Positions 3,979 to 26,063 of a DNA stretch of 26,063 nucleotides are shown piece by piece (the first letter of the stretch is position 1; each line of letters begins with the position of its first letter). The notes under the pieces were generated by a model. It was not told where the DNA came from, searched no databases, and saw only the letters and a program-made list of their open reading frames with translations. Source of the stretch: Propionibacteriaceae bacterium (lineage in GTDB: Bacteria > Actinomycetota > Actinomycetes > Propionibacteriales > Propionibacteriaceae); the NCBI GenBank assembly GCA_031256725.1, contig JAIRQE010000027.1, forward strand, positions 1 to 26,063, in the 5' to 3' direction. Both the position numbers and the translations under genes were made by a program.

Positions 3979-4001
3979 GACCCCAACTCTTGGGAACATG
4001 C

Positions 4002-4496: not shown

Positions 4497-4633
4497 AAAA
4501 CCCACCTTTGAGTCGTATTTCTTTCTCCTCATGCAGGGATGCAATGAACCTCCTAGCATTGATGGGGTATTCCTCGGACGAAATCATCGTCATTCTCCCT
4601 CAAAATCGACAATGGCGTTGGCCCACATAAGTA

Positions 4634-7142: not shown

Positions 7143-7163
7143 GGATGCTCCTTATCGCTTTTG

Positions 7164-9424: not shown

Positions 9425-9436
9425 ATCATCACCACA

Positions 9437-10879
9437 TCAGGGAACGATGACTTCATCGCCAGCATTGAGTTGATCAGAGAAGACCTGTACCCGCGTATCG
9501 GCCACCAAACCAATCTCAACCCTAATCAGGGTACCGTCCACTAGCTCCACGCAGTACCCACCCTCTGCCAAAGCCATGAGAGCCGTTACGGGCACAACCA
9601 GTGACTCCTCGACCTCATCTTGGATGAAGGAGACCGTGATGGCACTCACCTCAAGAGCGTCACCTTCCGTAGGATCTGCAATGCTTATTCGAGCCTTGGC
9701 AGGGATAGTTTGGTTGGTCTGTGGATCAAGTCGCGATTCTGTGATCCCACCAACCTCCCCTTCAATTTCCGTACCATCAGGAAGTTTCATGATGGCCTTG
9801 GTTTCATCCGAAATCAGCCTGCGCTGGGCTTCGGTCAGGTCCACATGCCCGTACAGAACAGGTCTAGTCCACGTGAGTACTGAGTCACCTGCTGTAAGCC
9901 CAACCTTGGCCGTGACATTGTGAATCCGTATCTCAGGTTCACTCACGATGATCGCTGACTTGGGGCCAATGGTATTCATTGAGAGTCGATTCACGACCGT
10001 TTGGGCCTCGGTGACGGCCCTCTGTGCTGTGGTCACTCCCGCCTGCTCAGAGGCAGTGTTCGGCGGTTGATCAAGTTCGTTACGTGTGGCTTGAGCCAGA
10101 TTCAATGCTTCTTGCGCGCGTACAATATCTGCTTGAGTGCATACAGACGCACAGTTTCCCCTGAGGGCTTCCTCATAGGTTCTACGTGCCTCGTTGACAT
10201 CGTTGTCGGCGGAAACAATTGCTGACTGACTTGGTCTGCGATTCCTTGCATTAGTCAGATCAGTCTGGGCGGCAGTCAGATCCTCCTTGGCCTTGTTGAG
10301 CGCACTTTGAGCTTCAGTCCTCTCGGTATCCAGGGTCGAACTTGGGGGTACAACGCTATGCCCCGCTCTTGAATACATCACGGCGATAGCTGCTGAGAGT
10401 GCGTCATCATAGGTTTGGTTTCCTGGCTGTCCAGCATCCAGCCCAAGGCTTGCAAGGGCTGCTCGAACCGAGGCAACATCAGGACCAGAGACACCAGGAG
10501 CAATATCTCGCCATAGCGGGAGTTCACCACTAAGAAGGAATACTGGTACACCCTCAACTTCCATGATGATCTCGCCAGCTTTGATGGTATCCCCTGCTTG
10601 AGGGATCTTTGTGACGACCCCTCCACCACCACCAAGGGTATGGACATCACCATAACCCAGGGTTCCTGAGATAACGAAAGCAGACACCAAAGAGGTCTTC
10701 TCGACTGTGGCAGTACGAGTCCTATCTTCAACATTTTGATTCTGGTGACGATTCCCAAACCAAACAGCACCACCTGCGACTAGAGCGAGGACCACAACTC
10801 CTGCTCCCAGACCAATCAAAACCCGTCGCTTGGTTGAAGGATTCTTTGCCTCCCGCGCGGTCTTTTCTCGCTTTTTCAT
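9437..10879 (-). CDS. HlyD/MFP-like periplasmic adaptor with peptidoglycan-binding domain, cassette 1
   Basis: N-terminal TM (VLIGLGAGVVVLALVAGGAVWF). PG_binding_1-like segment (GPDVASVRAALASLGLDAGQPGNQTYDDALSAAI). A long coiled-coil-like Ala/Gln/Thr-rich region is followed by a beta-rich C-terminus. Confidence 0.8.
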   Translation of the reverse strand: MKKREKTAREAKNPSTKRRVLIGLGAGVVVLALVAGGAVWFGNRHQNQNVEDRTRTATVEKTSLVSAFVISGTLGYGDVHTLGGGGGVVTKIPQAGDTIKAGEIIMEVEGVPVFLLSGELPLWRDIAPGVSGPDVASVRAALASLGLDAGQPGNQTYDDALSAAIAVMYSRAGHSVVPPSSTLDTERTEAQSALNKAKEDLTAAQTDLTNARNRRPSQSAIVSADNDVNEARRTYEEALRGNCASVCTQADIVRAQEALNLAQATRNELDQPPNTASEQAGVTTAQRAVTEAQTVVNRLSMNTIGPKSAIIVSEPEIRIHNVTAKVGLTAGDSVLTWTRPVLYGHVDLTEAQRRLISDETKAIMKLPDGTEIEGEVGGITESRLDPQTNQTIPAKARISIADPTEGDALEVSAITVSFIQDEVEESLVVPVTALMALAEGGYCVELVDGTLIRVEIGLVADTRVQVFSDQLNAGDEVIVP

Positions 10880-12050: not shown

Positions 12051-13181
12051 CTATTCAGGTTTGCCCTCATCTGCAAGGATCTGCGGTATACGACCGAAGG
12101 AGTAGTATGCCGCACAGGCACCCTCTGGGGAAACCATACAGGTACCAATGGGATTGTCAGGGGTACACCCTTTCGCAAAGACCTTGCATTCCCATGGCTT
12201 GATCTGACCGGTGAGTACCAACCCACACTGGCAGGCGGGATGATCAGCAACCACAGCCCCGGGCAGATCGAAGTGCTTCTCTGCGTCAAAGGATTCATAC
12301 TCATCTGACAGACGATAACCGGACACGGGGATGGATCCTAGTCCCCGCCACTCAAAAGAGTCCTTGGGGGTGAAGACTTCTTCGAGTACACGCTTTGCTT
12401 CGGGGTTCCCCAGTGGACGTACCACCCGTGAGTACTGGTTCTCGACCTCACATCGACCTTCAGCAAACTGCTTGAGCATCATGGCAACAGCCTGCAGAAT
12501 ATCGAGGGGTTCAAACCCTGTGACAACGATAGGGATACGGAACTCTGTAGCCACGAATTGGAAGTGATCCGAACCAACCACTGTTGCGACATGGCCTGGT
12601 CCAATGAGTCCGTCCAGGGTGACATTCTTGGTTTCAAGGATGGCCCGTACCGGCGGATTAATCAGAACATGATTGCAGAAAACATAGAAATTGGTGATGC
12701 CGATCTTCTTGGCATAGGCCAAAGCAGCAGCTGTCGAAGGAGCTGTGGTTTCAAAGCCCACAGCAAAGAAGACGACCTTCCGATCAGGATTATCCCGAGC
12801 AACCTTCACAGCATCCAAAGGGGAGTAGATGAAGCGTACATCTGATCCCTGAGCCTGAGCTTGGAGGAGGCTTCCAGCCCTGCCTGGTACGCGCATCATG
12901 TCACCGAAGGTGGTGAAGATCACACCCGGCTGGCCTGAGAGCCACACAGCATCATCCACACGACCTGAGGGAATCACGCATACCGGGCAACCCGGCCCAT
13001 GCACGAACTCCACAGCTTCAGGAAGAAGATGCTCCAAACCATGGCGATAGATCGTATGGGTATGTCCCCCACAGACCTCCATGATCTTCCAGCTACACCC
13101 AAGCTGTTCTGCCATCTTGTGGATGGAAGCAATCAGATCCTTAGCGGCTGCAGGATCACGAAACTCATCAACGTACTTCAT
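12051..13181 (-). CDS. hypD: [NiFe]-hydrogenase maturation protein HypD
   Basis: MKYVDEFRD... N-terminus, the GPGCPVCV motif and a length of 376 aa. ATGA overlap with the hypC stop. Confidence 0.95.
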   Translation of the reverse strand: MKYVDEFRDPAAAKDLIASIHKMAEQLGCSWKIMEVCGGHTHTIYRHGLEHLLPEAVEFVHGPGCPVCVIPSGRVDDAVWLSGQPGVIFTTFGDMMRVPGRAGSLLQAQAQGSDVRFIYSPLDAVKVARDNPDRKVVFFAVGFETTAPSTAAALAYAKKIGITNFYVFCNHVLINPPVRAILETKNVTLDGLIGPGHVATVVGSDHFQFVATEFRIPIVVTGFEPLDILQAVAMMLKQFAEGRCEVENQYSRVVRPLGNPEAKRVLEEVFTPKDSFEWRGLGSIPVSGYRLSDEYESFDAEKHFDLPGAVVADHPACQCGLVLTGQIKPWECKVFAKGCTPDNPIGTCMVSPEGACAAYYSFGRIPQILADEGKPE

Positions 13182-13444
13182 CGAATCTCCGTCTGTTTGA
13201 AGGCATCCAACTCGTCATCCCAGACCTGCCCGAGTTTCTTAATCTGATCCAAAGTCTGATCGGCTTCTTCGGCGTCTATCTTCGATAAGGCGAAACCAAC
13301 ATGAACGAGTACCCAGTCCCCCACCTTGATTCCCTCATCGACGAGTAGGCCAATAGAGACCTCACGCTCAACCCCACTGACAGAGACAGTGGCAAGATCC
13401 CCCTCTAGAAGGGCGACAACCTCACAGGGTATTCCTAGACACAT
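13178..13444 (-). CDS. hypC: [NiFe]-hydrogenase assembly chaperone HypC
   Basis: Starts MCLGIPCEVV, with the essential Cys2. 88 aa. Confidence 0.9.
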   Translation of the reverse strand: MCLGIPCEVVALLEGDLATVSVSGVEREVSIGLLVDEGIKVGDWVLVHVGFALSKIDAEEADQTLDQIKKLGQVWDDELDAFKQTEIR

Positions 13445-13456
13445 AATTCCTCCTCA

Positions 13457-14527
13457 CTAACAGATCCGTGGTAGTGGATCGGTCACAAGCATGTCGACAA
13501 GTCGTGTTCCTCCGAAGGCATTGCGTACTGCCACAAGGCCTTGTGGATTGCGGACAACCTCGCCAACGATAGACGCTTGGGAGGCTCCCGCATCATGGAG
13601 AGCCGCAAGTGCGGTCTCAGCAACCTCACCAGAAACAACAGCGATGAAGCATCCCTCGTTTGCGACATAGAGAGGGTCGATACCCAACATGTCGCAGGCA
13701 CCCTGTACCTGTGGTTCGATTGTGAAGGCTTCCTCATCAAGAAGGACACCCTTACCTGAGGCCTTCGTTAACTCGTTCATCACGGTCGCGACTCCACCTC
13801 GTGTGGCATCGCGCATCCACTTCACCGATTCAGGATTGATCGCATCATAGATGGCTTCAACAAGTCCATTGACTGGCGCAGAATCGGATTCGATGGTGGC
13901 TGTGAATGCGAGGTTGCCTCGAGCAATCATCACAGCCATTCCATGGGAGGCGATGGGACCAGAAATAAGGATACGATCACCAAACTCTAGTCGAGAGGCC
14001 CCCAAAGTTCTTTGTGAAGGCACGACACCAATCCCTGAGGTATTGATGAAGATCGAGTCGGCTGCTCCACGTGGTACAACCTTCGTATCCCCCGCGACGA
14101 TCTGTATTCCTGCCTTCTCGGCAGCCACGCGCATATCCTCAACGATCCTGCGCAGCTCATCGATCGCGAAACCCTCTTCAAGGATGAACCCAGCAGTCAG
14201 CCATTGAGGTCGGGCACCAGTAACAGCGAGATCATTGACTGTACCGTTGATCGCCAGTTCACCAATACTGGCTCCAGGGAACCTAATCGGTTGAACCACA
14301 TAGGAATCCGTGGTGTAGGCAATCCGTCCTGTCTCAACCTGAAGTGTGGCAGCATCAGGTAAATCGATGGAAGCAGGGTTTGAGAAGGCTGGCATGAAGA
14401 CCTCTTTAATGAGTGCTGCAGCAGCCTTGCCGCCCGAACCATGTGCCATGGTCACTCGGTCATCTGTGAGCTTAGGTTCCCTACCCAACCCGTGAATCTG
14501 GCCTGGGGCATCCTGCTCCGTTGTCAT
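13457..14527 (-). CDS. hypE: Hydrogenase maturation carbamoyl dehydratase HypE
   Basis: AHGSGG motif, PurM-like fold signatures, and the diagnostic C-terminal PRIC. Confidence 0.95.
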   Translation of the reverse strand: MTTEQDAPGQIHGLGREPKLTDDRVTMAHGSGGKAAAALIKEVFMPAFSNPASIDLPDAATLQVETGRIAYTTDSYVVQPIRFPGASIGELAINGTVNDLAVTGARPQWLTAGFILEEGFAIDELRRIVEDMRVAAEKAGIQIVAGDTKVVPRGAADSIFINTSGIGVVPSQRTLGASRLEFGDRILISGPIASHGMAVMIARGNLAFTATIESDSAPVNGLVEAIYDAINPESVKWMRDATRGGVATVMNELTKASGKGVLLDEEAFTIEPQVQGACDMLGIDPLYVANEGCFIAVVSGEVAETALAALHDAGASQASIVGEVVRNPQGLVAVRNAFGGTRLVDMLVTDPLPRIC

Positions 14528-14619
14528 CGCGATGATCCTGTCGTCTCATGTCTCCTGGTGGTCTTCTTAACGTTTCAGGAGAACCGTTTGGAGAAGTCAG
14601 AGTCTTATTCTCCCAACAA

Positions 14620-17046
14620 TCAAGCAAGCATACCAGTTCGGTTGATATGAAGATGGAGGTATCCAGCAAGGGCTTGTCCGAGTGCCAGACCTCCGTCATT
14701 GGAGGGTACCACCCGGTGCAGGATTGCTTCGTACCCCTGGGACTGTAAGTGGCTGGCTAGGTCCGCTGAGAGTAGCCGATTGGCAAAGACTCCACCAGTG
14801 AATCCTATTTTCTCGGGTCCAGATGTGAAAGTAACAACCATTGTTGCCAGGAGATGGGCTAGTCCAGAATGGAAAGACCGCGCGAGACATTCCACTGGCG
14901 TATGTTTCCTCACGCGATCAAGGATGAACTCCACTAGCTCTTCCACTGATCGACAGGGAACTTTGTGGTGATGAGTGCATTGTAGAGCTCGGGCCTCCAA
15001 TTCCATTGCCGCCTGGGCCTCATAGGAGACCTGGTGACAGATTCCGATCAGTGAGGCAGCCGCATCGAAGAGCCGGCCCGTACTCGTGGTGCGAGTCAGA
15101 TTCACCTGAGCCTGTAATTGGGAGTTGACGAGAGCCATATCATCCACAGATGGGCATCCCGGGAGATCCCCAGTTGCCCACGCCTGTACCTTTGCTGGAT
15201 CTATGTCGTACTCCCACAGCAAGCCGAGGGTAGATTTCCACGGATGACGTACCGCAGAATCCCCCCCAGGAAGCCAAAACTCAGGCAGGTGATCGAGCCG
15301 ACGATACTCAAGTGGGTTCTCACCTAGACGAAGGATCTCCCCACCCCAGATGGTGGCATCATCACCGTAACCCGTGCCATCAAGAACGACGAAGGTGGAG
15401 GGGGCTTCATGTCCTACTTCGGCGATGAGGGAGAGCGCGTGTGCGTGATGATGCTGGACTTCAAGGACGTCCACCCCCCACTGCTCAGCCTTATGTATCC
15501 CCCAGGCATGGGTTGCATATCCTGGATGTTTGTCGATGACGACCAGAGAGGGTTGACGCCTATGCGCCCCTATCATCTGTTGAACGGATTTCTCATATGC
15601 TGCCTGCGTCTCAAGGGAGCCCATATCGCCAATATGAGCACTCAGGAAGGCCATTCCGTCACGGGTCAGCGCAAAAGTATTTTTGAGTTCTGCACCCACT
15701 GCGAGGACACAGTGATCCTGTTCACCAAGGAAGACTGGAAGGGGTGCGAACCCTCGACTGCGCCTGATGGGGCGGATCTGATCGGCATCTGCCATGATCA
15801 CCGAATCCTCCACGGGTATATGGATCCCTCGGTCATGCATGAGGAAAGCGTCAACGATATGCCCTAGGTCCTGGCGAGCATCCTCATTACGGTAGGTCAG
15901 CGGCAGCGAGGAAGAGTTCGCGCTAGTCGCGACAAGGATCTCATCTTCGTCAATCAGCAACCGATGCAGTGGAGAATAGGCCAGCATGACCCCCACATCA
16001 TCAAGTCCTGGGGCTACTGAGGGCGCACAATCATAGGTGGGGGCCTTGGGTGTAAGTACGATGGGTGCCTCCCGCCCACTGAAGGCTCTGCGGTGTACCT
16101 CCCCCAATTCTGCGATCCTGGAGGCAGCCTCCACAGACCCCGCCATAACAGCAAGGGGTTTGCCTGGGCGACGTTTACGGGTACGCAAGGTGGTCACAGC
16201 TTCTTCATTGCGTGCATCACACATCAGTGTGAACCCGCCGATGCCCTTCACAGCAAGGATCTTTCCTTGTTTCAACATGGATTTTGCCTGAGTGATGACC
16301 TCAGTAAAGGAGGAGGATCGCTCGGACGAGAGTCTAGATTCTGCGACTTCGCGCAGAATGACAGTTGAGTCCGCATCTCGTCCCACGTCACTCTGCGCGT
16401 CCTTTTCCCTGTCATTCTGCGCAGAACGAAGTGGAGTCGCAGAATCCAGACCATGGGATTCCTCCAACCATAGGGTGGGTCCACAGTCGAAACATGAGAT
16501 CGGCTGAGCATGGTACCGTCGATCCTCAGGGTCGGTGTATTCCTTGCGACAGGATTCACACATGGGGAAGTCAACCATTGTGGTCAGTGGGCGGTCATAG
16601 GGCACATCACGGATAATCGACAAACGCGGGCCGCAATTCGTACACGTCGTGAACGGGTACTGGTATCGCCGATTGCTGGGATCCTCCATATCCTCTATGC
16701 AATCCGCGCAGACTGCACCATCTCCGGGAATCAACGTGATGGCACCAGCCGCTCGACGAGAAGCCACGATATGGAATCCCGATTCTTCTTGGATTGGCAC
16801 TTCCGTACTATGAAAAGAAAGAATACTTGCCATAGGTGGGATTTCTTCCACTACAGCATCACAGAAACTCTGAAGATCCGAGGGAAGCCCCTGAACCTCG
16901 ATGAACACAGAATTATCGTCATTCCCACACAGCCCAGTGACCGGAAAACGACTCGCGACACGGGCAACATGGGGGCGAAAGCCCACGCCCTGTACCACTC
17001 CTGTGATGACGACCTGCTGGCGGATCAAGGCGGCCACTTTGTCCAT
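14620..17046 (-). CDS. hypF: Carbamoyltransferase HypF
   Basis: Acylphosphatase motif VQGVGFRP, two zinc-finger CxxC pairs (CADC...CTNCGPR; CESC...CFDCGP), and YrdC-like and Kae1-like regions. I place the start at ATG 17044-17046 (MDKVAAL...), or GTG 17037. The 900-aa ORF-track version extends over hypA and is rejected. Confidence 0.9.
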   Translation of the reverse strand: MDKVAALIRQQVVITGVVQGVGFRPHVARVASRFPVTGLCGNDDNSVFIEVQGLPSDLQSFCDAVVEEIPPMASILSFHSTEVPIQEESGFHIVASRRAAGAITLIPGDGAVCADCIEDMEDPSNRRYQYPFTTCTNCGPRLSIIRDVPYDRPLTTMVDFPMCESCRKEYTDPEDRRYHAQPISCFDCGPTLWLEESHGLDSATPLRSAQNDREKDAQSDVGRDADSTVILREVAESRLSSERSSSFTEVITQAKSMLKQGKILAVKGIGGFTLMCDARNEEAVTTLRTRKRRPGKPLAVMAGSVEAASRIAELGEVHRRAFSGREAPIVLTPKAPTYDCAPSVAPGLDDVGVMLAYSPLHRLLIDEDEILVATSANSSSLPLTYRNEDARQDLGHIVDAFLMHDRGIHIPVEDSVIMADADQIRPIRRSRGFAPLPVFLGEQDHCVLAVGAELKNTFALTRDGMAFLSAHIGDMGSLETQAAYEKSVQQMIGAHRRQPSLVVIDKHPGYATHAWGIHKAEQWGVDVLEVQHHHAHALSLIAEVGHEAPSTFVVLDGTGYGDDATIWGGEILRLGENPLEYRRLDHLPEFWLPGGDSAVRHPWKSTLGLLWEYDIDPAKVQAWATGDLPGCPSVDDMALVNSQLQAQVNLTRTTSTGRLFDAAASLIGICHQVSYEAQAAMELEARALQCTHHHKVPCRSVEELVEFILDRVRKHTPVECLARSFHSGLAHLLATMVVTFTSGPEKIGFTGGVFANRLLSADLASHLQSQGYEAILHRVVPSNDGGLALGQALAGYLHLHINRTGMLA

Positions 17047-17122
17047 CCCTTCATTGGTCGTAGGATTCCTATGTCTAAGCTCGTCACGAGCGTAGCATTG
17101 CTGGAGGTCGAAAGAGGGGTTC

Positions 17123-17461
17123 ATGCACGAACTTTCCCTATGCCGCTCTATCGGTTCAATCGTGGAGAAGGTGGCTGAAGGACGCCGCGTGGCAGTCGTC
17201 GAAATCGAGGTTGGCCACTTGCGCCAAGTCGTACCCGAGACCCTTGTACATTGCTGGACCCTCATCACCCAGGGTACAGACCTCGCAAACTCACGCCTGG
17301 AGATCCAAGAAAAACCTTGCATTGTGGCTTGTCAGGACTGTGACAAGGAAACGACCTTAACCGAATCACCTATACTTGAGTGTGGATTTTGCACAAGCAA
17401 GAATGTGACCCTCATCGCTGGAGAAGAGTTCATGGTCACCTCGTTAGTACTGGAGGATTGA
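17123..17461 (+). CDS. hypA: Hydrogenase nickel insertion protein HypA
   Basis: Canonical MHELSLC N-terminus (Ni site) and zinc-site CxxC pairs (CQDC...CGFC). 112 aa. Confidence 0.9.
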   Translation: MHELSLCRSIGSIVEKVAEGRRVAVVEIEVGHLRQVVPETLVHCWTLITQGTDLANSRLEIQEKPCIVACQDCDKETTLTESPILECGFCTSKNVTLIAGEEFMVTSLVLED

Positions 17462-17462
17462 T

Positions 17463-18326
17463 ATGGGAAGATTTCACCGCCACGATGATGGAACAACCCA
17501 CAGCCACGATCATGACCACGCTGGCCACGACCACCATCATGGCCATCCCCATGATCACGACCATGAGCATGGTCACCCCCACGAGCATCCTCACGACCAT
17601 GAACATACACCCGATCCTGAGCGGGCCGAACTCATTGGCGACCACAGTGGCTACTCCACAGGTGGCGAACGTATTCAGGTTCTAGAGCGCATCTTTGATG
17701 AGAATGATCGAGCAGCCGAAACCAACCGTAGCCTCCTTGATACCGCTGACGTCACAGCCATCAACCTCATGAGTTCTCCTGGGGCTGGAAAGACCACCCT
17801 CCTAGTTGCCACATTGTCCGCCCTTCAAGACAGGGTACGCTGCGGAGTCATCGAAGGGGACATCGAAACCTCCATAGATGCAGATCGACTTGAGGGGTTT
17901 GGAGCTCAAATCTCTCTGCTCAATACAGGCGATGGCTTCGGTGGGGAATGCCATCTGGATGCACCCATGGTTGCCACAGCACTCACACGGCTGAATCTTG
18001 AGGATCTTGACCTTCTTTTTATCGAAAACGTTGGCAACCTGGTGTGTCCAGCCGAGTTCGATGTGGGAGCCCATCGCCGAGCCATGGTTGCCTCCGTCAC
18101 CGAAGGTGAAGATAAGCCGCTGAAGTACCCAGTGATGTTCAGAAGTGTGGATGCAGTCGTCATCAATAAGATCGACCTTCTCCCCTACCTTGACTTTGAC
18201 ATCGACCAATTCCAGGCCAACATCACAGCCATCAACCCCACGGCCACAATCTTTCTCACCAGTACAAAAACCGGCGAGGGACTCCACGAATGGATTGACT
18301 GGGTTCAATCAGGGACAGTCAATTAG
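17463..18326 (+). CDS. hypB: Hydrogenase nickel-incorporation GTPase HypB with His-rich N-terminus
   Basis: His/Asp-rich stretch (HSHDHDHAGHDHHHGHPHDHDHEHGHPHEHPHDHEH, about nt 17472-17606). P-loop SSPGAGKTTLL, CH motif GECHLD and ENVGNLVCP. The start is 1 nt after the hypA stop, with GGAGGA upstream. Confidence 0.95.
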   Translation: MGRFHRHDDGTTHSHDHDHAGHDHHHGHPHDHDHEHGHPHEHPHDHEHTPDPERAELIGDHSGYSTGGERIQVLERIFDENDRAAETNRSLLDTADVTAINLMSSPGAGKTTLLVATLSALQDRVRCGVIEGDIETSIDADRLEGFGAQISLLNTGDGFGGECHLDAPMVATALTRLNLEDLDLLFIENVGNLVCPAEFDVGAHRRAMVASVTEGEDKPLKYPVMFRSVDAVVINKIDLLPYLDFDIDQFQANITAINPTATIFLTSTKTGEGLHEWIDWVQSGTVN

Positions 18327-19180
18327 GACTCTGTCTTTTTTCGACTGAACCGGGAAGGAATCGGCTCAATCCCCGCATCTCGGGCGGCTCGACGCTTGTC
18401 GTTGATCCGGCAGAGTATCTCGGCAATCTCGTACATCGCAACCATGGGGATCATGAGGGCCATCATGGTCAACGCATCAGCTGTGGGAGTCGCGATGGCT
18501 GAGAAGAGAGCACACAAGACGACTGCTGGTCCACGGAACTTCCCTAGAGCTTGACCAGAGATAATCCTCAACCTATTCAAGCTCACAAGTAACACAGGCA
18601 ACTGGAAGGCCAAACCAAAGACCAGGAGCAACCGCAGCTCGAAGTTCATGAAGGTACCCATGTCGTTGAGGTTCGTCACAGATGGTGGATTGAAGTTGAG
18701 GAGCATCGCAAAACCACGCGGGCAGATGCTGTACCCCATCGCTACCCCAGCCAAGAACAGAGGTATGGCTGCATAGAGGAATTGTCTGGCAGTACGTCGC
18801 GCAGCCTCGCCGAGTGCTGGCACGATGAACCTCCACAGGTGAAAGAGCCAGATAGGGCAGGCAGCAATGAATCCGGCAACAAAGACGACTCGGAAATACA
18901 GGGAAAAACCAGCCGTGACCCCCTCAGTCACCATTTCGACACGGTCGCTAGGGCGACTCTCATTGAAGATAATCACGGCCTGATCAATAGGCCAACGTAC
19001 GATGCCCAGCAGTTCCCTTTGAAAGAAGATCGCAATGAGTGCCACTGCCAGAATCCCGATCATCGACATCAGGAATCGATAACGTAACTCCCGCAGATGG
19101 TCGAATAGCGACATCGTGCCATCTGTAGACTGGGGTTTTGGTGCCCGCAACCACGCGAAGCGCGAACCCTTTTTGGGCAC
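18323..19180 (-). CDS. tatC: Twin-arginine translocase subunit TatC
   Basis: MSLFDHLRELRYR motif after an actinobacterial-type N-terminal extension, with 6 predicted TMs. GTG start at 19178-19180. Confidence 0.9.
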   Translation of the reverse strand: MPKKGSRFAWLRAPKPQSTDGTMSLFDHLRELRYRFLMSMIGILAVALIAIFFQRELLGIVRWPIDQAVIIFNESRPSDRVEMVTEGVTAGFSLYFRVVFVAGFIAACPIWLFHLWRFIVPALGEAARRTARQFLYAAIPLFLAGVAMGYSICPRGFAMLLNFNPPSVTNLNDMGTFMNFELRLLLVFGLAFQLPVLLVSLNRLRIISGQALGKFRGPAVVLCALFSAIATPTADALTMMALMIPMVAMYEIAEILCRINDKRRAARDAGIEPIPSRFSRKKTES

Positions 19181-19199
19181 AATCCCTACCTTGCCCTAC

Positions 19200-19463
19200 C
19201 TATTTGGTATCGGTAACCTGTTCGGGTACAGTCTCGGCCTCAGCCTCGTGTGGAGAAACCTCTGATGCCACAGTCCCAGTAATCTGAGCAGTCTCATCAC
19301 CCTTCAATTCCTCTTTGAATTCCCTGATGGCACGGCCAGATGCCTTGCCCACTCCAGCGATCTTCGCACCACCAAAGATGATGACCACGATTACAAGAAT
19401 AATCAGCAGCTCTTGCCAACCCAGCATTGCAAATGCCAGTAAGGTGTGCCATCCAAGGCTCAT
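19200..19463 (-). CDS. tatA: Twin-arginine translocase subunit TatA
   Basis: N-terminal TM followed by the hinge FGGAKI and the amphipathic helix GRAIREFKEELK. GGAGGA lies 5 nt upstream of the ATG at 19463. Confidence 0.85.
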   Translation of the reverse strand: MSLGWHTLLAFAMLGWQELLIILVIVVIIFGGAKIAGVGKASGRAIREFKEELKGDETAQITGTVASEVSPHEAEAETVPEQVTDTK

Positions 19464-19737
19464 GTCAATCCTCCATCACCGCAGGATGAGTCCGTCTCAT
19501 ATCGAAGTTGATCCTACCAGGACTCGCTTCCACGCATCTGCAATTTCACTAACTTCTCTGCCGCACATTCATGTATGCTCTATTTGAATATCTATTTCCA
19601 CGCGGACACCCTAACCTTCAAGTGAAGTCTTTCTAATACCTATCTTGCATGTATGCCGGACTTGCCACGATTCACTCAATCTGATTTGTGGGTCCTCTGA
19701 AGCATCGCTTACCTCTCTACGGGGATTCAATTATGAT

Positions 19738-20835
19738 TCAGCGATCCTTGCTAAAGCGAAAGAGATGTTTCTCGAATGTTGTGGAAACAACAACAACAAC
19801 TCCAAGGATACAAGCAGATAGACCCGCACCCAGAATACGTAAACCTGCGCGCCATATCATCCAATCAGGATAGGGGTTGTCAACAAATGATACCCACAAG
19901 AGACCAGCAGCGATAATCAGGCAGGCACCACTGGCCCATATAAGAGTCTCAATTAAATATTGCCACATAATGGCTACTCTACCTACACGAGCATGGAGCG
20001 CAGAAGCGATTTCAAGACGCCGTAATCGAACCGAAACGTAGCCTAACCCGAATCCAATCGCTGTTGACACCCATGGTGCATATGCTGTCAATCGATTACC
20101 ATATAAGACTTCAAGATCATCAGAAACACCAAGACTCGAATTCAACTGCTTTGTTTCGATCTGACTATGTTGTACTGATCCATTCAGCGCCATATAACTC
20201 AAACCATTCAGCGTCTGGTCCGATGGCCATATTTCGGTCCAGCATTGCTCAAAGAGCCCACTGCTCGGAACTGATGCAATCACTGAGTACCCGAGATCAC
20301 GGGACCGCCCATCATTTGGCCAGGTGTACACACCCGATACCATAACTGGCCCACTAGTAGTCTGGATCACACGACCCGGCGCAGCCCCTAGAACTTCGGC
20401 AAGATCAGCAGACAACCACACGCCCAGCACATCATTCGTGGACACCTTAACGGGCTGCGCGATAGTGGAAAGCATACCCAGTACGCCAGGAGTGACTTCA
20501 ATAACAGTTATCCAAGAAGTAGGCAGACTGGCGATCTGAAGAGAATCACCGCGTCGAATTGCCCCGGCATGCAATAGGGCATCCGTATGGGCCAATGCCT
20601 CACAGCGACGACCGTCAATCGACTCTTGAGCTTTCAGAACTTGGACACTTGCTCCAGCTGCACGGAATTGAGCAGCATCCCGAACTATGGACACCATCAT
20701 ACGGACATCAACCGAAGCAACCACGCCGATGCTGACGCAAAACACCAACACAAAGATCACCGCCCTAGTCGTTCCAGACAACAGATTTCGCAGCGATTCT
20801 GATCCCACAGAACTGGCTCTCATCCTTGTGGGCAC
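19738..20835 (-). CDS. FtsX-like ABC transporter permease, cassette 2
   Basis: TM1, then an extracytoplasmic domain of about 210 aa, then 3 C-terminal TMs with the FtsX-type loop RLRRLEIASALHARVGRVAIMWQYLIETLIW. The likely true start is ATG 20823, which overlaps the ATPase stop as ATGA. GTG 20835 is the alternative. Confidence 0.75.
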   Translation of the reverse strand: MPTRMRASSVGSESLRNLLSGTTRAVIFVLVFCVSIGVVASVDVRMMVSIVRDAAQFRAAGASVQVLKAQESIDGRRCEALAHTDALLHAGAIRRGDSLQIASLPTSWITVIEVTPGVLGMLSTIAQPVKVSTNDVLGVWLSADLAEVLGAAPGRVIQTTSGPVMVSGVYTWPNDGRSRDLGYSVIASVPSSGLFEQCWTEIWPSDQTLNGLSYMALNGSVQHSQIETKQLNSSLGVSDDLEVLYGNRLTAYAPWVSTAIGFGLGYVSVRLRRLEIASALHARVGRVAIMWQYLIETLIWASGACLIIAAGLLWVSFVDNPYPDWMIWRAGLRILGAGLSACILGVVVVVSTTFEKHLFRFSKDR

Positions 20836-21770
20836 GATACGCCTTCATCATTGGATCGCGGGACCTGGCGTGCCCGCTCTATACGAATACGAACTCGCTC
20901 GGATGGCCCCCCAGAGGACAAGACGCCTAATGGTTTTTTAATACCAACAAAAGACTCTTCGTCAGAATTTTGCTCCCCACTCCCGATCTTCTCATCACTA
21001 GAGGAAAATCTAGTTTCAATGCCTGTGTCGTCACAGAACACTACAGTAGGACGATAAGTGGATCGTTGGTTCTTCGCACTGGAAACCACGCCCTGATAAT
21101 CCGCCAAATCAATAACCCGGGTGCATGCATCTTTCGTCCTCAAATCATGGGTCGCCACAACCACTATCGTGTCGTCCTGCGCAATTCCCATCAAAACATC
21201 GTTTACTGTCGAAGCAGTTGCTAAGTCTAGCTGAGCAGTTGGTTCGTCCACGAGCAACAAGTCACACTTGGCCACCAACGCCCGGGCCAACATCAGCCGT
21301 TGCGCCTCTCCTCCTGATAGGTCTCGAAAGACTCTTTCCGCCACCTCCGCCAGCCCAAAATGGATCATGACCTTCATTGCCTCATGCTCTGCATCCTGTC
21401 TAGCCAAACCCTGCGCCAGTAATGGTAGGACTACGTGATCTAGCGCAGTGCGGCGCGGCACACCATGTGGGTTTTGGAAGACCCATCCCGTGTGACTAAT
21501 TCTGTGCCAAGTTACCTCTCCCACGAGAGGCTTTACCCATCCAGCAAGGATCGATAGTAGCGTTGACTTTCCAGATCCTGATGGTCCCACTACTGCCACT
21601 ACCTCACCTGGTGATAAGGTAATATCCAGTCCACTAAACAATTCTTTTGTGCCAGGAAATCTGTGTGCTAAACCTCGCGCTACCACTCCTATCTCACGAC
21701 TAGACCCAAATCGGCCTACTGACACGACCTCACTCCGTTGAGTAGATCCGGCTTGCGCAGTCCTTAGCAT
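20820..21770 (-). CDS. ABC transporter ATP-binding protein, cassette 2
   Basis: Walker A GPSGSGKST, Q-loop VFQNPHG, signature LSGGEAQR, Walker B LLLVDEPTAQLD and H-loop ATHD. It has an N-terminal extension of about 28 aa and a C-terminal tail of about 90 aa. Confidence 0.9.
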   Translation of the reverse strand: MLRTAQAGSTQRSEVVSVGRFGSSREIGVVARGLAHRFPGTKELFSGLDITLSPGEVVAVVGPSGSGKSTLLSILAGWVKPLVGEVTWHRISHTGWVFQNPHGVPRRTALDHVVLPLLAQGLARQDAEHEAMKVMIHFGLAEVAERVFRDLSGGEAQRLMLARALVAKCDLLLVDEPTAQLDLATASTVNDVLMGIAQDDTIVVVATHDLRTKDACTRVIDLADYQGVVSSAKNQRSTYRPTVVFCDDTGIETRFSSSDEKIGSGEQNSDEESFVGIKKPLGVLSSGGPSERVRIRIERARQVPRSNDEGVSCPQG

Positions 21771-22822
21771 TGAATCAAGGAGTCTGGTAGCAGAGTAACA
21801 GAGGATGGGCTTGCATCATTCGTTACTCTGACATAGGTGCGCCCCAATGACGAAGATACAATCTCTACAGGAACGGTGTCTCCCTCAACTACCAGACAAC
21901 CTTTCCCGAAGTCAGTTACCACAATCGAACTTGGTGGCACTACAAGCACCGATATCGGCTCTGCCAGTTGTACGGTCATTTGCATAGAGCCCTGACCAGT
22001 CGAAGTAATGTACTGGTATTCTTCATCTTTTTCAACTAGAGCCAAGAATTCTTTGCTTGTGACCCACCCATCGGCGCCCACTTCCGCCAAGGCATCCCCA
22101 TACGAAAGCATCCAGTTATGTCCAGGGACCTCAGCTAATACCAGCGCCTGCAAACCACCCGCTACCTGAAGTATATCATCACCATGATTCACGATGTCGC
22201 CGATTCTGACCAGGCATTCTCCAATCATAATCTCAGTTGCTGGTAGCCACATCACGGATGAAAGTGGCAGATCACCAGAGTCTGACTTGCCGCCCACAGA
22301 CGCGAAGAGCTTGGTCACTGCCACTCTAGTCTTCCAGTCAAAGCGACTTGTCACATCCACTTCATACCCTAGCCGATCCAGTTCTACCTGCAGCGCTGAG
22401 ACATCTGGACCTGCCATTCCTGTAGACAAGTCCCGCCATAGCGGCATACCAGCCGACAAGCCAATGACGGGTTGACCATTGACAAAAAAAGGAGCCTGTC
22501 CAGAAACCAAAGTGCCTCCCGACAAACAGGAACTTGCACTCACCACTCCTGTTGAGTTCGACCGCAAGCTCACTGACTCGTGAATCTGAGGGACTACGGA
22601 AACTTTGTGCGCTCCATCGTATATCTGACTTGACACTGCCACTACCGATTCTGCATCTGACGATGCAATAGATACTGGAGGACGATGTGGCAAAACAAGA
22701 GAGCCTATCAGTATGCCTAGGGCCACAAGCACAACCATCAATAGACCAATCATCCCTAGACTCAGCCCATGCAGTCCACGATTTAGCCAAGCAACTCCAT
22801 CACTTGGAGAAGAAATAGGCAC
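21764..22822 (-). CDS. Membrane-anchored peptidoglycan-binding adaptor-like protein, cassette 2
   Basis: N-terminal TM (LSLGMIGLLMVVLVALGILIGSLVL). GQPVIGLSAGMPLWRDLSTGMAGPDVSALQVELDRLGY is paralogous to the cassette-1 adaptor segment. The C-terminus is beta-rich. It lacks the long coiled coil. GTG start with GGAG 6 nt upstream. Confidence 0.75.
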   Translation of the reverse strand: MPISSPSDGVAWLNRGLHGLSLGMIGLLMVVLVALGILIGSLVLPHRPPVSIASSDAESVVAVSSQIYDGAHKVSVVPQIHESVSLRSNSTGVVSASSCLSGGTLVSGQAPFFVNGQPVIGLSAGMPLWRDLSTGMAGPDVSALQVELDRLGYEVDVTSRFDWKTRVAVTKLFASVGGKSDSGDLPLSSVMWLPATEIMIGECLVRIGDIVNHGDDILQVAGGLQALVLAEVPGHNWMLSYGDALAEVGADGWVTSKEFLALVEKDEEYQYITSTGQGSMQMTVQLAEPISVLVVPPSSIVVTDFGKGCLVVEGDTVPVEIVSSSLGRTYVRVTNDASPSSVTLLPDSLIQC

Positions 22823-22941
22823 TGTTTACTCCAATTCGCCTTCCATACCGTCATACAAAATCACCTCTGAAACGATTCCATGAGCCGCACGTTCAATGTG
22901 ACGACACTCAGAACAAAGGCCAACTGTTGAAACGATATTCA

Positions 22942-23562
22942 CTACCTATTATGCATTAGTTCCATTGCCTGTTCAGGAGTCAGCGTTCCGGTCTCCAACG
23001 AGTCCCAAAAGCATAGAGCTCCTTGATCTGTAGCAGGGATCCAGCTCGGGTCCTCAACCATTGCAGAAAACTCATCATCCGACAACCCTGATCCTTCATC
23101 AAGACCGTGTTTCTCGAAGCATGCCCGAATCAGCATTCCTCCAGACAAACGCTCAGGATTCCATTTCGCCTCGAAATAGATAAACCGAACTAAGTCAATA
23201 GATCCTTTGGAACACTCGACATCCAGTGATTGAGAAACCGGCTTATTGGGATCAGGGTTACCTGCCGAAGGAGCCATCTGATAGCCGCCGTCATCCAGGA
23301 ACTGGACGTCGTACCCGTTTTCTGCCATGCATTGCATAAAACGATCCTCGGCCTCACGCTCTTCCGCGTCTGTAACCACATAATCTGCCAGCACGGCCTT
23401 CTCGAACTCGGTGGGGTCGCTAGCAGTCAGTACTTCATCAATCCAAGCCTTCATAGCGGGGTAGACATCCGGTGTCTCTGGTTGCTGAGAGACCGTACAC
23501 CCACCGAGAACAAAGACAGCGAGTCCCAAAGTAATGGCAACCGCCGTGCGAGTATGCATCAT
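22942..23562 (-). CDS. Lipoprotein with C-x4-G motifs, paralogous in pattern to 6258-7142 (cassette 2)
   Basis: Signal peptide with lipobox VLGGC. The mature part has 4 Cys, in FMQCMAENGYDVQ, LDVECSKG, IRACFEKHGLDEG and GALCFWD. The terminal TGTLTPEQAMELM resembles PGTITPDQLRALL in the cassette-1 lipoprotein. Confidence 0.75.
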   Translation of the reverse strand: MMHTRTAVAITLGLAVFVLGGCTVSQQPETPDVYPAMKAWIDEVLTASDPTEFEKAVLADYVVTDAEEREAEDRFMQCMAENGYDVQFLDDGGYQMAPSAGNPDPNKPVSQSLDVECSKGSIDLVRFIYFEAKWNPERLSGGMLIRACFEKHGLDEGSGLSDDEFSAMVEDPSWIPATDQGALCFWDSLETGTLTPEQAMELMHNR

Positions 23563-23578
23563 CCTGGTATATTAGTTC

Positions 23579-23911
23579 TCATAATATCATATTTTGCTGA
23601 TACGGCGTGGTGCCACGAACAATACCTACTCTCCCAGTCTCAGCATTAACTGCTGAAGACTTCCCTTGAGTAACCCATGCACCTTTGAGGGTAAGAGGAG
23701 TACCAGCAAGATTGTAACTAATCCAAGGAGCCGTCTTAATACAAGTCGAGTTACTCACGGCTATTGAATACGTAGCGGTAGTATAACTACGAGTGCATCC
23801 TCCATCTGTCTCAGTGCCCGTTGCAGCTTCAACTTCTGAAGGAGTCCCTACTACTAAAGCGCCTACTGCCAATACCGCAGCAAGAACAGCACTAAGGCTT
23901 CTTCGATACAT
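23579..23911 (-). CDS. Small exported protein (about 110-aa precursor, about 81-aa mature, 2 Cys)
   Basis: ATG 23911 is preceded by GGGAGAAAGGAAAC; the ORF track begins at GTG 23947, which has no SD. The signal peptide is MYRRSLSAVLAAVLAVGALVVGTPSEVEA|ATG. The mature part is Thr/Ser/Tyr/Val-rich (beta-like), with Cys in DGGCTRSY and NSTCIKT. It is the first gene of the cassette-2 operon. Confidence 0.6.
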   Translation of the reverse strand: MYRRSLSAVLAAVLAVGALVVGTPSEVEAATGTETDGGCTRSYTTATYSIAVSNSTCIKTAPWISYNLAGTPLTLKGAWVTQGKSSAVNAETGRVGIVRGTTPYQQNMIL

Positions 23912-23964
23912 TGTTGTTTCCTTTCTCCCATGGACATCCCGAGCCACTTAACGTCGAAACCCAT

Positions 23965-23970
23965 ATTATA
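23965..23970 (-). promoter_or_regulatory. Candidate -10 hexamer TATAAT for the cassette-2 operon
   Basis: The plus-strand ATTATA at 23965-23970 reads TATAAT on the minus strand, inside an AT-rich tract about 55 nt upstream of ATG 23911. No convincing -35 element is present. Confidence 0.25.
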
Positions 23971-24099
23971 TTATTATCAACGTATCATGGTCTCTCGAAA
24001 TACTCAAATCCGATTGTCTCAACCTCACTGATAATTTGATGTGACCTACCTGAGGATGCGTCAAACACAACTCCCTCCCCAAGCCACTAGACTGGGACA

Positions 24100-24615
24100 A
24101 TGACCCCACTGCTGCTGGATATTGGGATGGCTGAACTTCTTGCCATCGCTGTACTGGCTGCGCTGTTTCTGGGACCAGAGAAGGTTCCTCCACTCGCTAA
24201 GAAGGCGGCACGAGTCTTTCGTTTTCTGCGCAATGTGGCAAATACGGCAACCGATCAAATCAAGACCGAGTTGGGCCCAGAGTTTGAGGATCTCCAGGAT
24301 CTTAATCCAAAGAACCTCGTGGGTAGTGTTCTGTCCAGTGATACTGATCCGATGACGAGCGAACTCGAAGCCCTCAAAAACGAAATGAACGGGATGCGTA
24401 CCGAAGTAACAAAGATGAGGCTTCAAACTGGGACACCCCTATTCCCGATGCCCACTCGCCCTAAGCCAGCAGTAACACCTCCGCAGCCTACTCCTCCACC
24501 CAGCCAGGAACCATCTGGAGAGTCGGAAGAAGCGGCTCCGACCATTACAGCCGCACCCACCACACCAACAAAGCAAAAGCAGTCAAAACCCTTCAACAAC
24601 TCGGCTACAACGTAA
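24100..24615 (+). CDS. tatB: Twin-arginine translocase subunit TatB
   Basis: LLDIGMAELLAIAVLAALFLGPEKVPPLAKKAARVFRFLR...ELGPEFEDL matches the actinobacterial TatB pattern (IGWGE.L...V....V.GPE.LP ... GPEFDDL). The tail is long and Pro/Thr-rich. Confidence 0.8.
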   Translation: MTPLLLDIGMAELLAIAVLAALFLGPEKVPPLAKKAARVFRFLRNVANTATDQIKTELGPEFEDLQDLNPKNLVGSVLSSDTDPMTSELEALKNEMNGMRTEVTKMRLQTGTPLFPMPTRPKPAVTPPQPTPPPSQEPSGESEEAAPTITAAPTTPTKQKQSKPFNNSATT

Positions 24616-24676: not shown

Positions 24677-25591
24677 TCACTGGGGTTCCAGCGGTTGTTG
24701 TTGTGAATAATACAGGGTTTCGATCTCGTCTGGGGTGAGGTAGTCCAGGTATTCGTGGAGTCGTTGGGTGTTCCACCAGTGAACCCAGTCCAGGGTCGCG
24801 TCGAGGACGTCGGTCAGGGTCGCAAAGGGACCGTCCTGGGAGACACATTCGGTCTTGTAGAGACCATTGATGGTCTCAGCGAGGGCGTTATCGTAGGAGT
24901 CACCCACTGTCCCGAATGAGGGAATGATCCCTGCCAGGGCGAGTTGTTCACCGTAATGAATCGCAGTGTATTGACTTCCATGATCACCATGATGAATGAG
25001 TCCTGGGCTGATCGGGTGCCCATGGTGTTCCCGGTCAGCGAGCGCGAGGTGAAGAGTGTCGGAGACGAGTTTTTGGGTCATTTGTGACGCGGCGTGAACC
25101 GCAACGATTCGTCGGGAGAACACGTCAGTGATGAACGCTACATACACCCATCCTGACAGGGTGCGAACATAGGTGAGGTCTGCGACCCAGATCTGGTTCG
25201 GAGCCGAAGCAACGAACATCCTATTGACGAGGTCACCAGCAGTGGGTGTGGTTTTCCTGGTCGTGATGATGTGTCGCCCCCTCACGAGGCCTTTCATCTG
25301 GTCGACTCGCATGAGGCGCCCAATCTTGGACTCACAGGCTTCAAACCCTAGACGTCGCATCAGGGCCCACATTTTCCTGCGTCCATAGAATCGTTCCCTG
25401 GGTAGGCGACCATGCTCATCAACGGTTTCCCTGATGGTTCGCATCACATCAACAAGTTCGGCATCAATAATGGATCTGGTTGAGGGGGGACGTGTTTTGA
25501 ATGCCCGGTAGGTTCTCGCTGCGATCATGACCCCGTACTCGCGTAGTACTCGGCATATCGACTCGACTCGGAAACCTCTGGCCCTCATCAC
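24677..25591 (-). CDS. IS3-family transposase OrfB (DDE integrase core)
   Basis: IWVADLTYVRT...HHGDHGSQYTA...DNALAETINGLYKTE gives the D, D and E regions of the rve fold. The reading frame stays open upstream to about 25675, in -1 relative to orfA. Confidence 0.9.
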   Translation of the reverse strand: MMRARGFRVESICRVLREYGVMIAARTYRAFKTRPPSTRSIIDAELVDVMRTIRETVDEHGRLPRERFYGRRKMWALMRRLGFEACESKIGRLMRVDQMKGLVRGRHIITTRKTTPTAGDLVNRMFVASAPNQIWVADLTYVRTLSGWVYVAFITDVFSRRIVAVHAASQMTQKLVSDTLHLALADREHHGHPISPGLIHHGDHGSQYTAIHYGEQLALAGIIPSFGTVGDSYDNALAETINGLYKTECVSQDGPFATLTDVLDATLDWVHWWNTQRLHEYLDYLTPDEIETLYYSQQQPLEPQ

Positions 25592-25605: not shown

Positions 25606-25941
25606 CTATTTTCGCTGTTGACCAGGGTCGAGTTCCCCGGCAAAGAAAATCGATGCTGCTTTCAGGATTTCGTTGGCTTCTTCAAGATCACGGACCTTGC
25701 GTTCCAACTCTTTAATCCTTGTCGACTCGGTTTGTTTCTCCACCTGAGCGATTCCTTCAGGGGTTCCCTCATCAAGCTGGGTTTGAACCCAACGACGCAA
25801 AGACTCACCCTTGACACCAACCTTGGGTCCAATAGCGAACGCAGCCTGATAGACAGAATCATATTCATCCAGGTGACTCAACACCATTTTAATGGCCCGA
25901 TCCCGGACCTGTGCAGGGTAACGACGTGGCATACCACTCAT
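25606..25941 (-). CDS. IS3-family transposase OrfA (HTH / leucine-zipper part)
   Basis: MSGMPRRYPAQVRDRAIKMV... (HTH) and IKELERKVRDLEEANEILKAASIFFAGELD (zipper and frameshift region). The TTG-initiated 151-aa version in the ORF track probably over-extends into the 5' UTR. Confidence 0.85.
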   Translation of the reverse strand: MSGMPRRYPAQVRDRAIKMVLSHLDEYDSVYQAAFAIGPKVGVKGESLRRWVQTQLDEGTPEGIAQVEKQTESTRIKELERKVRDLEEANEILKAASIFFAGELDPGQQRK

Positions 25942-26063
25942 CCTCTCTAGTCCGAAAATAACTGGTGTTTGGGCAGGGTTGTGTGTCTGGTGGGATGCAC
26001 CATTGTGGTTGTGATCGAGTGTTGTGTCAGTCTGTTTGTTGGAGGGTGACTGTGTATCCAAGT

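Follow-up and report, generated by a model that had tools for sequence, protein, structure and literature searches.

A conserved MacB-fold transporter cassette of Actinomycetota with a variable, possibly bacteriocin-encoding first gene

A 26,063-nt stretch of a Propionibacteriaceae metagenome-assembled genome (contig JAIRQE010000027.1; hereafter the window, in whose coordinates all positions are given) contains a cluster of five genes, referred to as cassette 2, which encodes a small exported protein, a lipoprotein, an adaptor, an ATPase of the ATP-binding cassette (ABC) type and a permease. Homologous clusters across the Actinomycetota share the last four genes, while the first gene is variable and belongs to a bacteriocin family in nine of them. 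The favored reading, to which a probability of roughly 0.55 is assigned, is that the cassette combines a secreted bacteriocin-like protein with the immunity of its producer. A preliminary description of the locus had proposed a wall-anchored device for mechanotransmission or extraction; its assignment to the MacB-type class and the existence of a conserved unit are retained, whereas the first-gene data favor toxin plus self-protection.

Organization of the Cassette

The five open reading frames (ORFs) were found in tandem on the minus strand, tightly packed and co-directional as first described. Their positions and those of two promoter-like sites are as follows:

23579-23911, minus strand: small exported protein, 110 amino acids (aa); ORF with a ribosome-binding site
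22942-23562, minus strand: lipoprotein, 206 aa; LGGC lipobox
21764-22822, minus strand: adaptor, 352 aa; GTG start with GGAG in front
20820-21770, minus strand: ABC ATPase, 316 aa; PF00005
19738-20823, minus strand: permease, 361 aa; MacB/FtsX (type VII ABC) fold by predicted structure
23961-23998, minus strand: candidate promoter, AT-rich, 5′ of the small gene; TCGAGA, 17 nt, AATAAT, then TATAAT (consensus scan and sequence reading)
22948-22975, minus strand: candidate internal promoter within the 3′ end of the lipoprotein gene, just before the 119-nt gap; TGAACA, 16 nt, CATAAT (consensus scan only)

A gap of 16 nt separates the small gene from the lipoprotein gene, and one of 119 nt separates the latter from the adaptor gene. 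The 7-nt overlap of the adaptor and ATPase genes noted earlier holds provided that the ATPase starts at ATG 21770, but not with the public gene call for the same sequence (L001), in which the start lies 15 codons further on and thus leaves a gap to the adaptor gene. The ATGA coupling of ATPase stop and permease start, likewise part of the preliminary description, was seen both in the window and in the relative L085. The candidate internal promoter agrees with the modular split that is apparent in other genomes, where the small gene and the lipoprotein gene form one pair and the adaptor, ATPase and permease genes form a trio.

A Conserved Four-Gene Core and a Variable First Gene

A scan of one genome per species yielded 80 loci, all of them in Actinomycetota. 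Their hosts belong to the Micrococcales, Bifidobacteriales, Actinomycetales and Propionibacteriales, which are taken as single-membraned, and include Cellulomonas, Oerskovia, Cellulosimicrobium, Isoptericola, Sanguibacter, many Bifidobacterium, Schaalia/Actinomyces/Pauljensenia, Microbacteriaceae and Propionibacteriaceae. Its distribution is patchy, and some genomes hold more than one copy: B. rousetti, B. callitrichos, B. scaligerum and B. santillanense have two each. Genes were counted over those 74 loci for which 3 kb or more of sequence upstream was available:

Adaptor: 73 of 74 loci
ATPase: 73 of 74 loci
Lipoprotein: 72 of 74 loci (68 upstream, on the same strand)
Lipoprotein, adaptor, ATPase and permease together: 70 of 74 loci
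These four genes plus a recognizable small gene: 32 of 74 loci

This co-conservation is far above chance expectation, and the four-gene core is a conserved unit, which answers the question of neighborhood conservation raised by the preliminary description. No universally conserved sixth gene was detected in the flanks of the 80 loci, where neighbors are lineage-specific.

The first-gene slot is occupied by at least three mutually unrelated families of small proteins with signal peptides, which family hidden Markov models (HMMs) recognize in 17, 10 and 11 loci; a small secreted gene of one of these three families is present in 34 of the 74 loci. In nine loci (L013, L021, L023, L027, L028, L031, L036, L037, and L081), the first-slot gene belongs to the bacteriocin family Lactococcin_972 (PF09683), with scores of 27.8-54.2 bits against a gathering cut-off of 22. 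The hosts are Agreia, three Rathayibacter, Agromyces, Labedella, Cryobacterium, Microbacterium, and Bifidobacterium santillanense, and the top PDB sequence match of the Labedella protein (L028) is lactococcin 972 itself (2LGN). Among the named hosts of a full cassette are Isoptericola halotolerans SM2308 (L011), Cellulomonas telluris (L009) and, with the lactococcin 972 form, Labedella phragmitis (L028). Conversely, 38 of the 70 loci with the four-gene core lack a recognized small gene, for example Schaalia L046. When the window is compared with three relatives, identity declines from the ATPase (63-76%) over the permease (44-55%) and the adaptor (38-50%) to the lipoprotein (30-38%) and the small protein (29-31%). 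The small protein, earlier regarded as a third structural partner, is therefore better described as the variable, dispensable and fastest-evolving element of the cassette. A variable slot that houses a known bacteriocin in nine loci argues for toxin plus self-protection. So does the overall pattern, in which the most exposed, specificity-determining parts evolve fastest and putative immunity genes persist without a toxin gene, as one would predict for a secreted toxin that varies beside a protection machinery that is conserved.

About 13 Bifidobacterium loci carry a divergent two-component system 5′ of the small gene, an arrangement also found at peptide-sensing resistance modules and for this reason in keeping with toxin plus self-protection. 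Sensor kinase and response regulator genes lie at ~2100-4400 on the opposite strand in L044, L051, L054, L056, L057, L063, L072, L074, and L075; no such regulator is present in the window. The same two-component systems would also suit a module that confers stand-alone resistance to exogenous envelope-active peptides or antibiotics in the manner of Spr0693-0695 or BceAB, with the small gene as an unrelated or regulatory passenger. Such a role could further draw on a permease fold nearest to that of Spr0695, an antimicrobial-peptide resistance pump, on the many loci without a small gene and on the second cassette of the window (cassette 1, see below), which has none. It would, however, leave unexplained why the small gene is locked to the lipoprotein gene in 34 of 74 loci and why nine of the cassettes contain lactococcin 972 genes, and it is considered unlikely.

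The Small Secreted Protein

Translation of the small gene is assigned to ATG 23911, which lies behind the ribosome-binding site GGAGAAAGGA, in agreement with an identical JGI gene call (P0084); GTG 23947 is an alternative start. The signal peptide, MYRRSLSAVLAAVLAVGALVVGTPSEVEA, is followed by AT and a mature part of ~81 aa, which contains two invariant cysteines and abundant T, S, G, V, and Y. In the window-type family these cysteines are spaced ~18 residues apart, and members occupy the same slot in L085, the closest metagenomic relative, as well as in 16 genome loci. Signal peptides and conserved cysteine pairs are also features of the small proteins of related loci. Neither Pfam (E ≤ 10) nor NCBIfam nor PDB sequences, the latter searched with the protein's profile as well, contained a match to the window protein, and a word-index search of 5.8 billion proteins returned the query alone. 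A weak link connects the window-type and the Bifidobacterium-type small proteins (hhalign probability 29%, E 6e-4).

The architecture of the window protein nevertheless resembles that of lactococcin 972: it is a precursor with a signal peptide, its mature part of 81 aa compares with ~65-80 aa in the family, and its gene is placed as in the lactococcin 972 operon of plasmid pBL1. By eye, aromatic-rich C-termini are common among the window-type and lactococcin-972-type small proteins (AWYRY, PWKAY, AYYDV, AFWDTK). A Streptomyces plasmid locus encoding lactococcin 972 was considered for comparison and set aside, as its neighborhood differs (DUF6518 protein). The signal peptide begins with MYRRSLS, which includes an arginine pair (RR), and weakly matches an NCBIfam "TAT target" model (E 0.071). 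Export of the window protein by twin-arginine translocation (Tat) may thus be possible; Sec export is assumed for the window-type family since most of its members lack the RR pair.

The Lipoprotein and Its Linkage to the Small Gene

The lipoprotein combines an LGGC lipobox (Cys22) with four further invariant cysteines at positions 78, 117, 148, and 184, two of which lie within C-x4-G motifs. Its family comprises 429 representative clusters (E ≤ 1e-3), recovered only by an exhaustive search of representatives, as a word-index homology search returned the query alone. The AlphaFold 2 (AF2) model, built on sequences from the representative search, has a mean predicted local distance difference test (pLDDT) score of 90 and is helical with one hairpin. 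Foldseek comparison of this model produced nothing significant in PDB or BFVD (best E 0.46 and 0.36, respectively), and Pfam matches were not consistent across 80 members. YbjP, a lipoprotein partner of TolC, was considered as a relative and rejected, since it is an unrelated protein of an outer-membrane system.

Wherever a small gene is present, the lipoprotein gene follows directly 3′ of it. This also applies to relocated pairs: order and adjacency are kept in L002 and L058, where the pair is inverted, and in L016, L026, and L032, where it lies 3′ of the permease gene. Such constancy under rearrangement is a further argument for a toxin with its own protection. In several loci (L004, L012, L015, L016, and L068), the adaptor gene is preceded by two to four lipoprotein paralogues in tandem, and no such array has more than one small gene; the L004 array (1234-5088) includes one truncated lipoprotein copy. 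These arrays look like orphan immunity genes. In a close metagenomic relative (L083/L084), whose permease is 54% identical to that of the window, only the adaptor, ATPase and permease genes are present, with an HMGL-like gene in front and a Transposase_20 gene downstream. The absence of the small gene and lipoprotein gene from this relative implies that the pair can be lost or may never be acquired.

The tight linkage of the two genes could also be read as that of a cargo and its helper. After Sec export and disulfide formation, pump, peptidoglycan-anchored adaptor and lipoprotein would then drive the folded small protein through the thick wall, and export and immunity could be one act. Signal peptides and conserved cysteine pairs in the small proteins and the predicted wall-binding domain of the adaptor would fit, and a precedent exists in MacAB-TolC, which exports the enterotoxin STII from the periplasm (PMC5985334). 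The cargo gene is, however, unrecognized in 38 of the 70 four-gene loci, and lipoprotein arrays without matching small genes suit immunity better than chaperoning. Moreover, proteins of ~8 kDa are generally taken to diffuse through Gram-positive walls. Secretion through the wall by the cassette is therefore regarded as quite unlikely.

The ATPase and the Permease

The ATPase matches PF00005 (ABC_tran) at 4.6e-28, as the preliminary description had anticipated, with a nucleotide-binding domain at ~29-226. Its catalytic motifs are intact (Walker A GPSGSGKST, signature LSGGEAQR, Walker B LLLVDEPT, and H-loop), and its best NCBIfam matches, among them LolD, FtsE and L_ocin_972_ABC, all remain under their cut-offs. 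A C-terminal tail of ~90 aa (20823-21092) is not shared by relatives, whose ATPases measure ~210-220 aa; identity to these tail-less relatives is 63-76%. Both ATPases of the window end in tails of ~85-90 aa with a low-complexity look (20823-21092 and 8477-8740).

Searches of Pfam and NCBIfam yielded no family for the permease at E ≤ 1, not even FtsX (PF02687) or MacB_PCD (PF12704), the two profiles by which the preliminary description had expected it to be recognized. Precomputed FtsX or MacB_PCD domains are likewise absent from all 83 permease homologues (0/83), which are unannotated proteins of Actinomycetota, and the NCBIfam models FtsX_actino, FtsX_Gpos, FtsX_Gneg and lolCE do not match the window permease. 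Comparison of its profile with PDB sequences gave as best match transmembrane helices (TM) 2-4 of MacB, which is weak (E 0.45). The predicted structure is more informative. An AF2 model based on a 56-sequence alignment (pLDDT 92.4) contains helices at 21-55, 245-266, 282-313, and 321-348, and a mixed alpha/beta extracytoplasmic domain of ~190 aa (57-244) between TM1 and TM2. This domain includes a conserved Cys74/Cys194 pair; an RRLEIA motif and a C-terminal EKHLFRYFK.R are conserved as well. Foldseek retrieved 54 PDB matches at E ≤ 1e-3 with query-normalized TM-scores of up to 0.61, headed by Spr0695 (5xu1, 2.5e-13), MacB (5gko, 5lil, 5nik), HrtB (7w7a), LolC/E, YbbP and BceB; the extracellular domain of YknZ (5f9q) is also among them. 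The permease is therefore predicted to adopt the type VII ABC (MacB/FtsX/LolCE) fold and to represent a lineage which sequence models miss. An FtsX-like or MacB-type permease, as originally proposed, is thus supported by predicted fold but not by sequence models. In one metagenomic relative (P0010), ATPase and permease are fused into a single 612-aa protein, as in E. coli MacB.

Transporters of the MacB-type class have no transmembrane substrate path and act by mechanotransmission on extracytoplasmic substrates (PMC5985334), and a MacB fold thus accords with removal of a secreted toxin from outside the membrane. The fold is equally that of FtsX and LolC/E, and together with the peptidoglycan-binding domain of the adaptor and the lipoprotein gene in 72 of 74 loci it could point to a regulator of peptidoglycan remodeling or to an extractor of lipoproteins, in which ATP-driven domain movement would control a wall enzyme or free a lipoprotein. 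Neither a conserved hydrolase gene nor one for an activator, such as the EnvC/PcsB type, was found in the cassette or in the flanks of the 80 loci, where no gene family is universal, and the FtsX_actino and lolCE models do not match the permease. The patchy, multi-copy distribution is unlike that of housekeeping genes, and in the window the cassette lies in a low-GC stretch beside a transposase. As the hosts are taken to be single-membraned, an outer membrane as the destination of extracted lipoproteins is absent. A function of the FtsEX or Lol kind is accordingly considered highly improbable.

The Adaptor

The adaptor consists of an N-terminal TM helix (~22-44), a lipoyl-like half, a PG_binding_1 domain (~119-170), a second lipoyl-like half and a beta-rich C-terminal part with a VVPPSSI motif; four of its cysteines are conserved. 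The peptidoglycan-binding domain (PF01471), which the preliminary description had named, is recognized in 17 of 28 adaptor family members, while the window adaptor itself stays under the cut-off of 23 (21.2 bits, E 3.2e-4). The profile of the 28 members nevertheless matches peptidoglycan-binding domains in PDB (endolysin 7rum, 7e-5), flanked by lipoyl/biotinyl domain matches on either side of the insert (E 8.6e-5 to 0.1). Matches to MexC and CusB are weak (E 0.036-0.3), and none of the 28 members matches an HlyD-family Pfam model. A coiled-coil hairpin was not found in the window adaptor; the ~50-residue PG_binding_1 domain occupies the insertion point at which classical adaptors have it. This substantiates the earlier picture of an adaptor with a peptidoglycan-binding segment and without a long coiled coil. 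It also agrees with the view that simple efflux across an outer membrane is unlikely, given that the Actinomycetota hosts are taken as single-membraned.

A Proposed Secreted Toxin With Producer Self-Protection

Taken together, these observations can be accommodated by the following model. The small protein would be a disulfide-bonded, signal-peptide-dependent secreted toxin which acts on the cell envelope of competitors, and the other four genes would shield the producer. The lipoprotein, on the outer face of the membrane, would recognize the cognate small protein and hence serve as the specificity or immunity subunit, a role like that of LanI. Driven by the ATPase, the MacB-fold permease would transmit mechanical force through its extracytoplasmic domain, and together with the hairpin-less, peptidoglycan-anchored adaptor it would dislodge or expel the toxin from the interface between membrane and wall. 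In this way the toxin would be kept off its target in the producer. Precedents for this model are offered by YknWXYZ and SDP, AS-48EFGH, MacAB-TolC and STII, and orf2-orf3 of the lcn972 operon, which are discussed below.

Several points weigh against the model. The window small protein has no match to PF09683 (Pfam, E ≤ 10), and its interpretation as a divergent lactococcin 972 was rejected after hhalign comparison with the lactococcin-972-type proteins of related loci (probability 0.1%). The families of small genes were counted with HMMs built from the hits themselves, which makes the counts partly circular. The toxicity of the window protein is suggested by gene position and evolutionary pattern and by nothing else, and the target of the small protein, its binding by the lipoprotein and the direction in which the system acts are likewise inferred. 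Similarity of the lipoprotein to known immunity proteins was not found in Pfam, PDB, or BFVD, and the weak profile matches of the adaptor argue only weakly for its membership of the membrane-fusion-protein family. Finally, about half of the loci contain no recognizable small gene, from which it follows that the module can function in the absence of a toxin of its own, perhaps against peptides from outside.

It is conceivable, at a little less than even odds, that toxin and self-protection genes together represent an undescribed immunity machine specific to Actinomycetota, composed of a new two-cysteine bacteriocin-like family, a specificity subunit from a lipoprotein family for which structural relatives were not detected, a hairpin-less peptidoglycan-anchored adaptor and a MacB-fold permease unseen by sequence models. 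In a bolder version of this proposal, the folded toxin would be actively handed through the wall.

A Related Module and the Surroundings of the Cassette

A second module of the window, cassette 1, had been described as the same parts list. It consists of the following features:

6258-10879, minus strand: cassette 1, related four-gene module (Pfam, pairwise and profile comparisons)
9437-10879: cassette 1 adaptor, with a peptidoglycan-binding segment followed by a coiled-coil stretch
8477-9424: cassette 1 ATPase
7164-8480: cassette 1 permease, canonical FtsX and MacB_PCD (Pfam)
6258-7142: cassette 1 C-x4-G lipoprotein, last gene

Three of its four proteins are indeed related to those of cassette 2. 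The adaptors have a lipoyl and peptidoglycan-binding segment in common (hhalign probability 97.8%), the ATPases are 36% identical, and the lipoproteins are remotely homologous, their C-x4-G motifs coinciding in the alignment (probability 78%, E 1.8e-5). The permeases, however, exhibit no profile–profile similarity (probability 1.3%), the gene order differs, the adaptor retains its coiled coil, and the ORF lists of the flanks contain no small secreted gene adjoining cassette 1. The parts list thus recurs in part.

Cassette 2 lies in a region with a GC content of 0.49-0.51 (19000-24000) as opposed to 0.53-0.56 in neighboring regions, and with a GC skew of -0.16 to -0.21 compared to about -0.03. 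It is adjoined by an IS3-type transposase gene (rve, HTH_21) at 24677-25591 and a second transposase fragment at 25606-26061. Base composition, skew and adjoining transposases suggest that cassette 2 may have been acquired horizontally. On one flank lie tatA (19200-19463) and tatC (18323-19180), and on the other (24100-24615) a divergent 171-aa ORF, the N-terminus of which appears TatB-like by eye and which has no Pfam match at E ≤ 1e-3. Between the two cassettes (12051-18326), a full hydrogenase maturation set is encoded (hypD, hypC, hypE, hypF, and hypA) along with a cobW/HypB-type nucleotide-binding gene; a structural hydrogenase gene is not visible within the window. Further ORFs include one of 551 aa with DUF975 and ABC_trans_CmpB domains (2323-3978) and one of 355 aa without a Pfam match, which adjoins cassette 1 (4634-5701).

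Implications

If the proposed function is correct, the easily found four-gene core could act as a genomic signpost to new signal-peptide-dependent bacteriocins of actinobacteria, the toxin genes themselves being too variable for homology searches. The hosts, which include Bifidobacterium, Schaalia/Actinomyces, Cellulomonas, and Microbacteriaceae, occupy gut, oral and soil habitats. The function of adaptors in bacteria that have no outer membrane is an open question on which the cassette also bears, as a peptidoglycan-binding domain here replaces the hairpin and a dedicated lipoprotein accompanies the adaptor. Furthermore, a whole lineage of MacB-type permeases goes unrecognized in Pfam and NCBIfam, and the lipoprotein family with its 429 representative clusters has a confidently predicted fold with no relatives detected in PDB or BFVD.

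Comparison With Known Systems

The preliminary description could not name a described system with this composition. None was found here either, but functional analogues exist, namely YknWXYZ with SDP, AS-48EFGH, Spr0693-0695 and lcn972-orf2-orf3. YknWXYZ protects Bacillus from the endogenous peptide SDP, which is exported by Sec and disulfide-bonded, and purified YknX binds peptidoglycan; similarly, AS-48EFGH protects against AS-48, and MacAB-TolC handles the Sec- and Dsb-dependent enterotoxin STII from the periplasmic side (PMC5985334). YknWXYZ resembles cassette 2 in that it operates in a Gram-positive cell with a permease of the MacB fold, an ATPase as a separate protein and an adaptor anchored in the membrane. 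It differs in its accessory component, which is the membrane protein YknW instead of a lipoprotein, and in that the toxin gene lies outside the ykn operon. Unlike that of YknWXYZ, the adaptor of cassette 2 carries a discrete PG_binding_1 domain at the position of the classical hairpin. Moreover, YknZ is described as an evident homologue of MacB (PMC5985334), whereas Pfam yields no FtsX or MacB_PCD match for the window permease.

In the lcn972 operon of Lactococcus lactis plasmid pBL1 (NC_004955), a small gene for a signal-peptide-dependent bacteriocin comes first and is followed by an ABC system, orf2-orf3, which has been implicated in immunity (PMC4055356). Its bacteriocin family, Lcn972, is the first-gene family of the nine homologous cassettes described above, though not that of the window, and lactococcin-972-like genes in Actinobacteria have been noted through genome mining (PMC4289311). 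The transporters themselves differ. Orf2 (648 aa) matches DUF1430, which a weak match to FtsX (E 0.005) overlaps, and it exhibits no similarity to the window permease profile (hhalign probability 0.07%), and the models for Lcn972-type immunity transporters (DUF1430/TIGR01654) do not match the window permease. Identity between Orf3 and the window ATPase is 29%, and the latter scores 120.9 bits against TIGR03608, below the cut-off of 254.85. In contrast to cassette 2, pBL1 contains neither an adaptor nor a lipoprotein.

The best structural matches of the permease come from Spr0693-0694-0695 of Streptococcus pneumoniae and MacAB of E. coli, which share with cassette 2 the adaptor/ATPase/permease organization and whose substrates are peptides outside the cytoplasm (PMC5768738, PMC5985334). 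Nevertheless, Spr0695 and MacB are only 13-15% identical in sequence to the window permease, the adaptors of both systems form hairpin-based channels, and neither system includes a lipoprotein of the cassette 2 family or a linked gene for a secreted protein.

A functional analogy can also be drawn to lantibiotic self-immunity, in which the surface lipoprotein LanI sequesters the producer's own peptide and the ABC transporter LanFEG expels the peptide from the membrane. LanFEG transporters are not known to have the MacB fold, and for the window lipoprotein similarity to solved proteins was detected neither in sequence nor in structure. In a limited literature search, the five-part composition, the lipoprotein family, the hairpin-less peptidoglycan-binding adaptor and the permease lineage were not found described. 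The cassette family joins a composition of the YknWXYZ or AS-48EFGH type to a linked gene for a secreted protein, and while its five-part composition was not found described, its working principle is already known.

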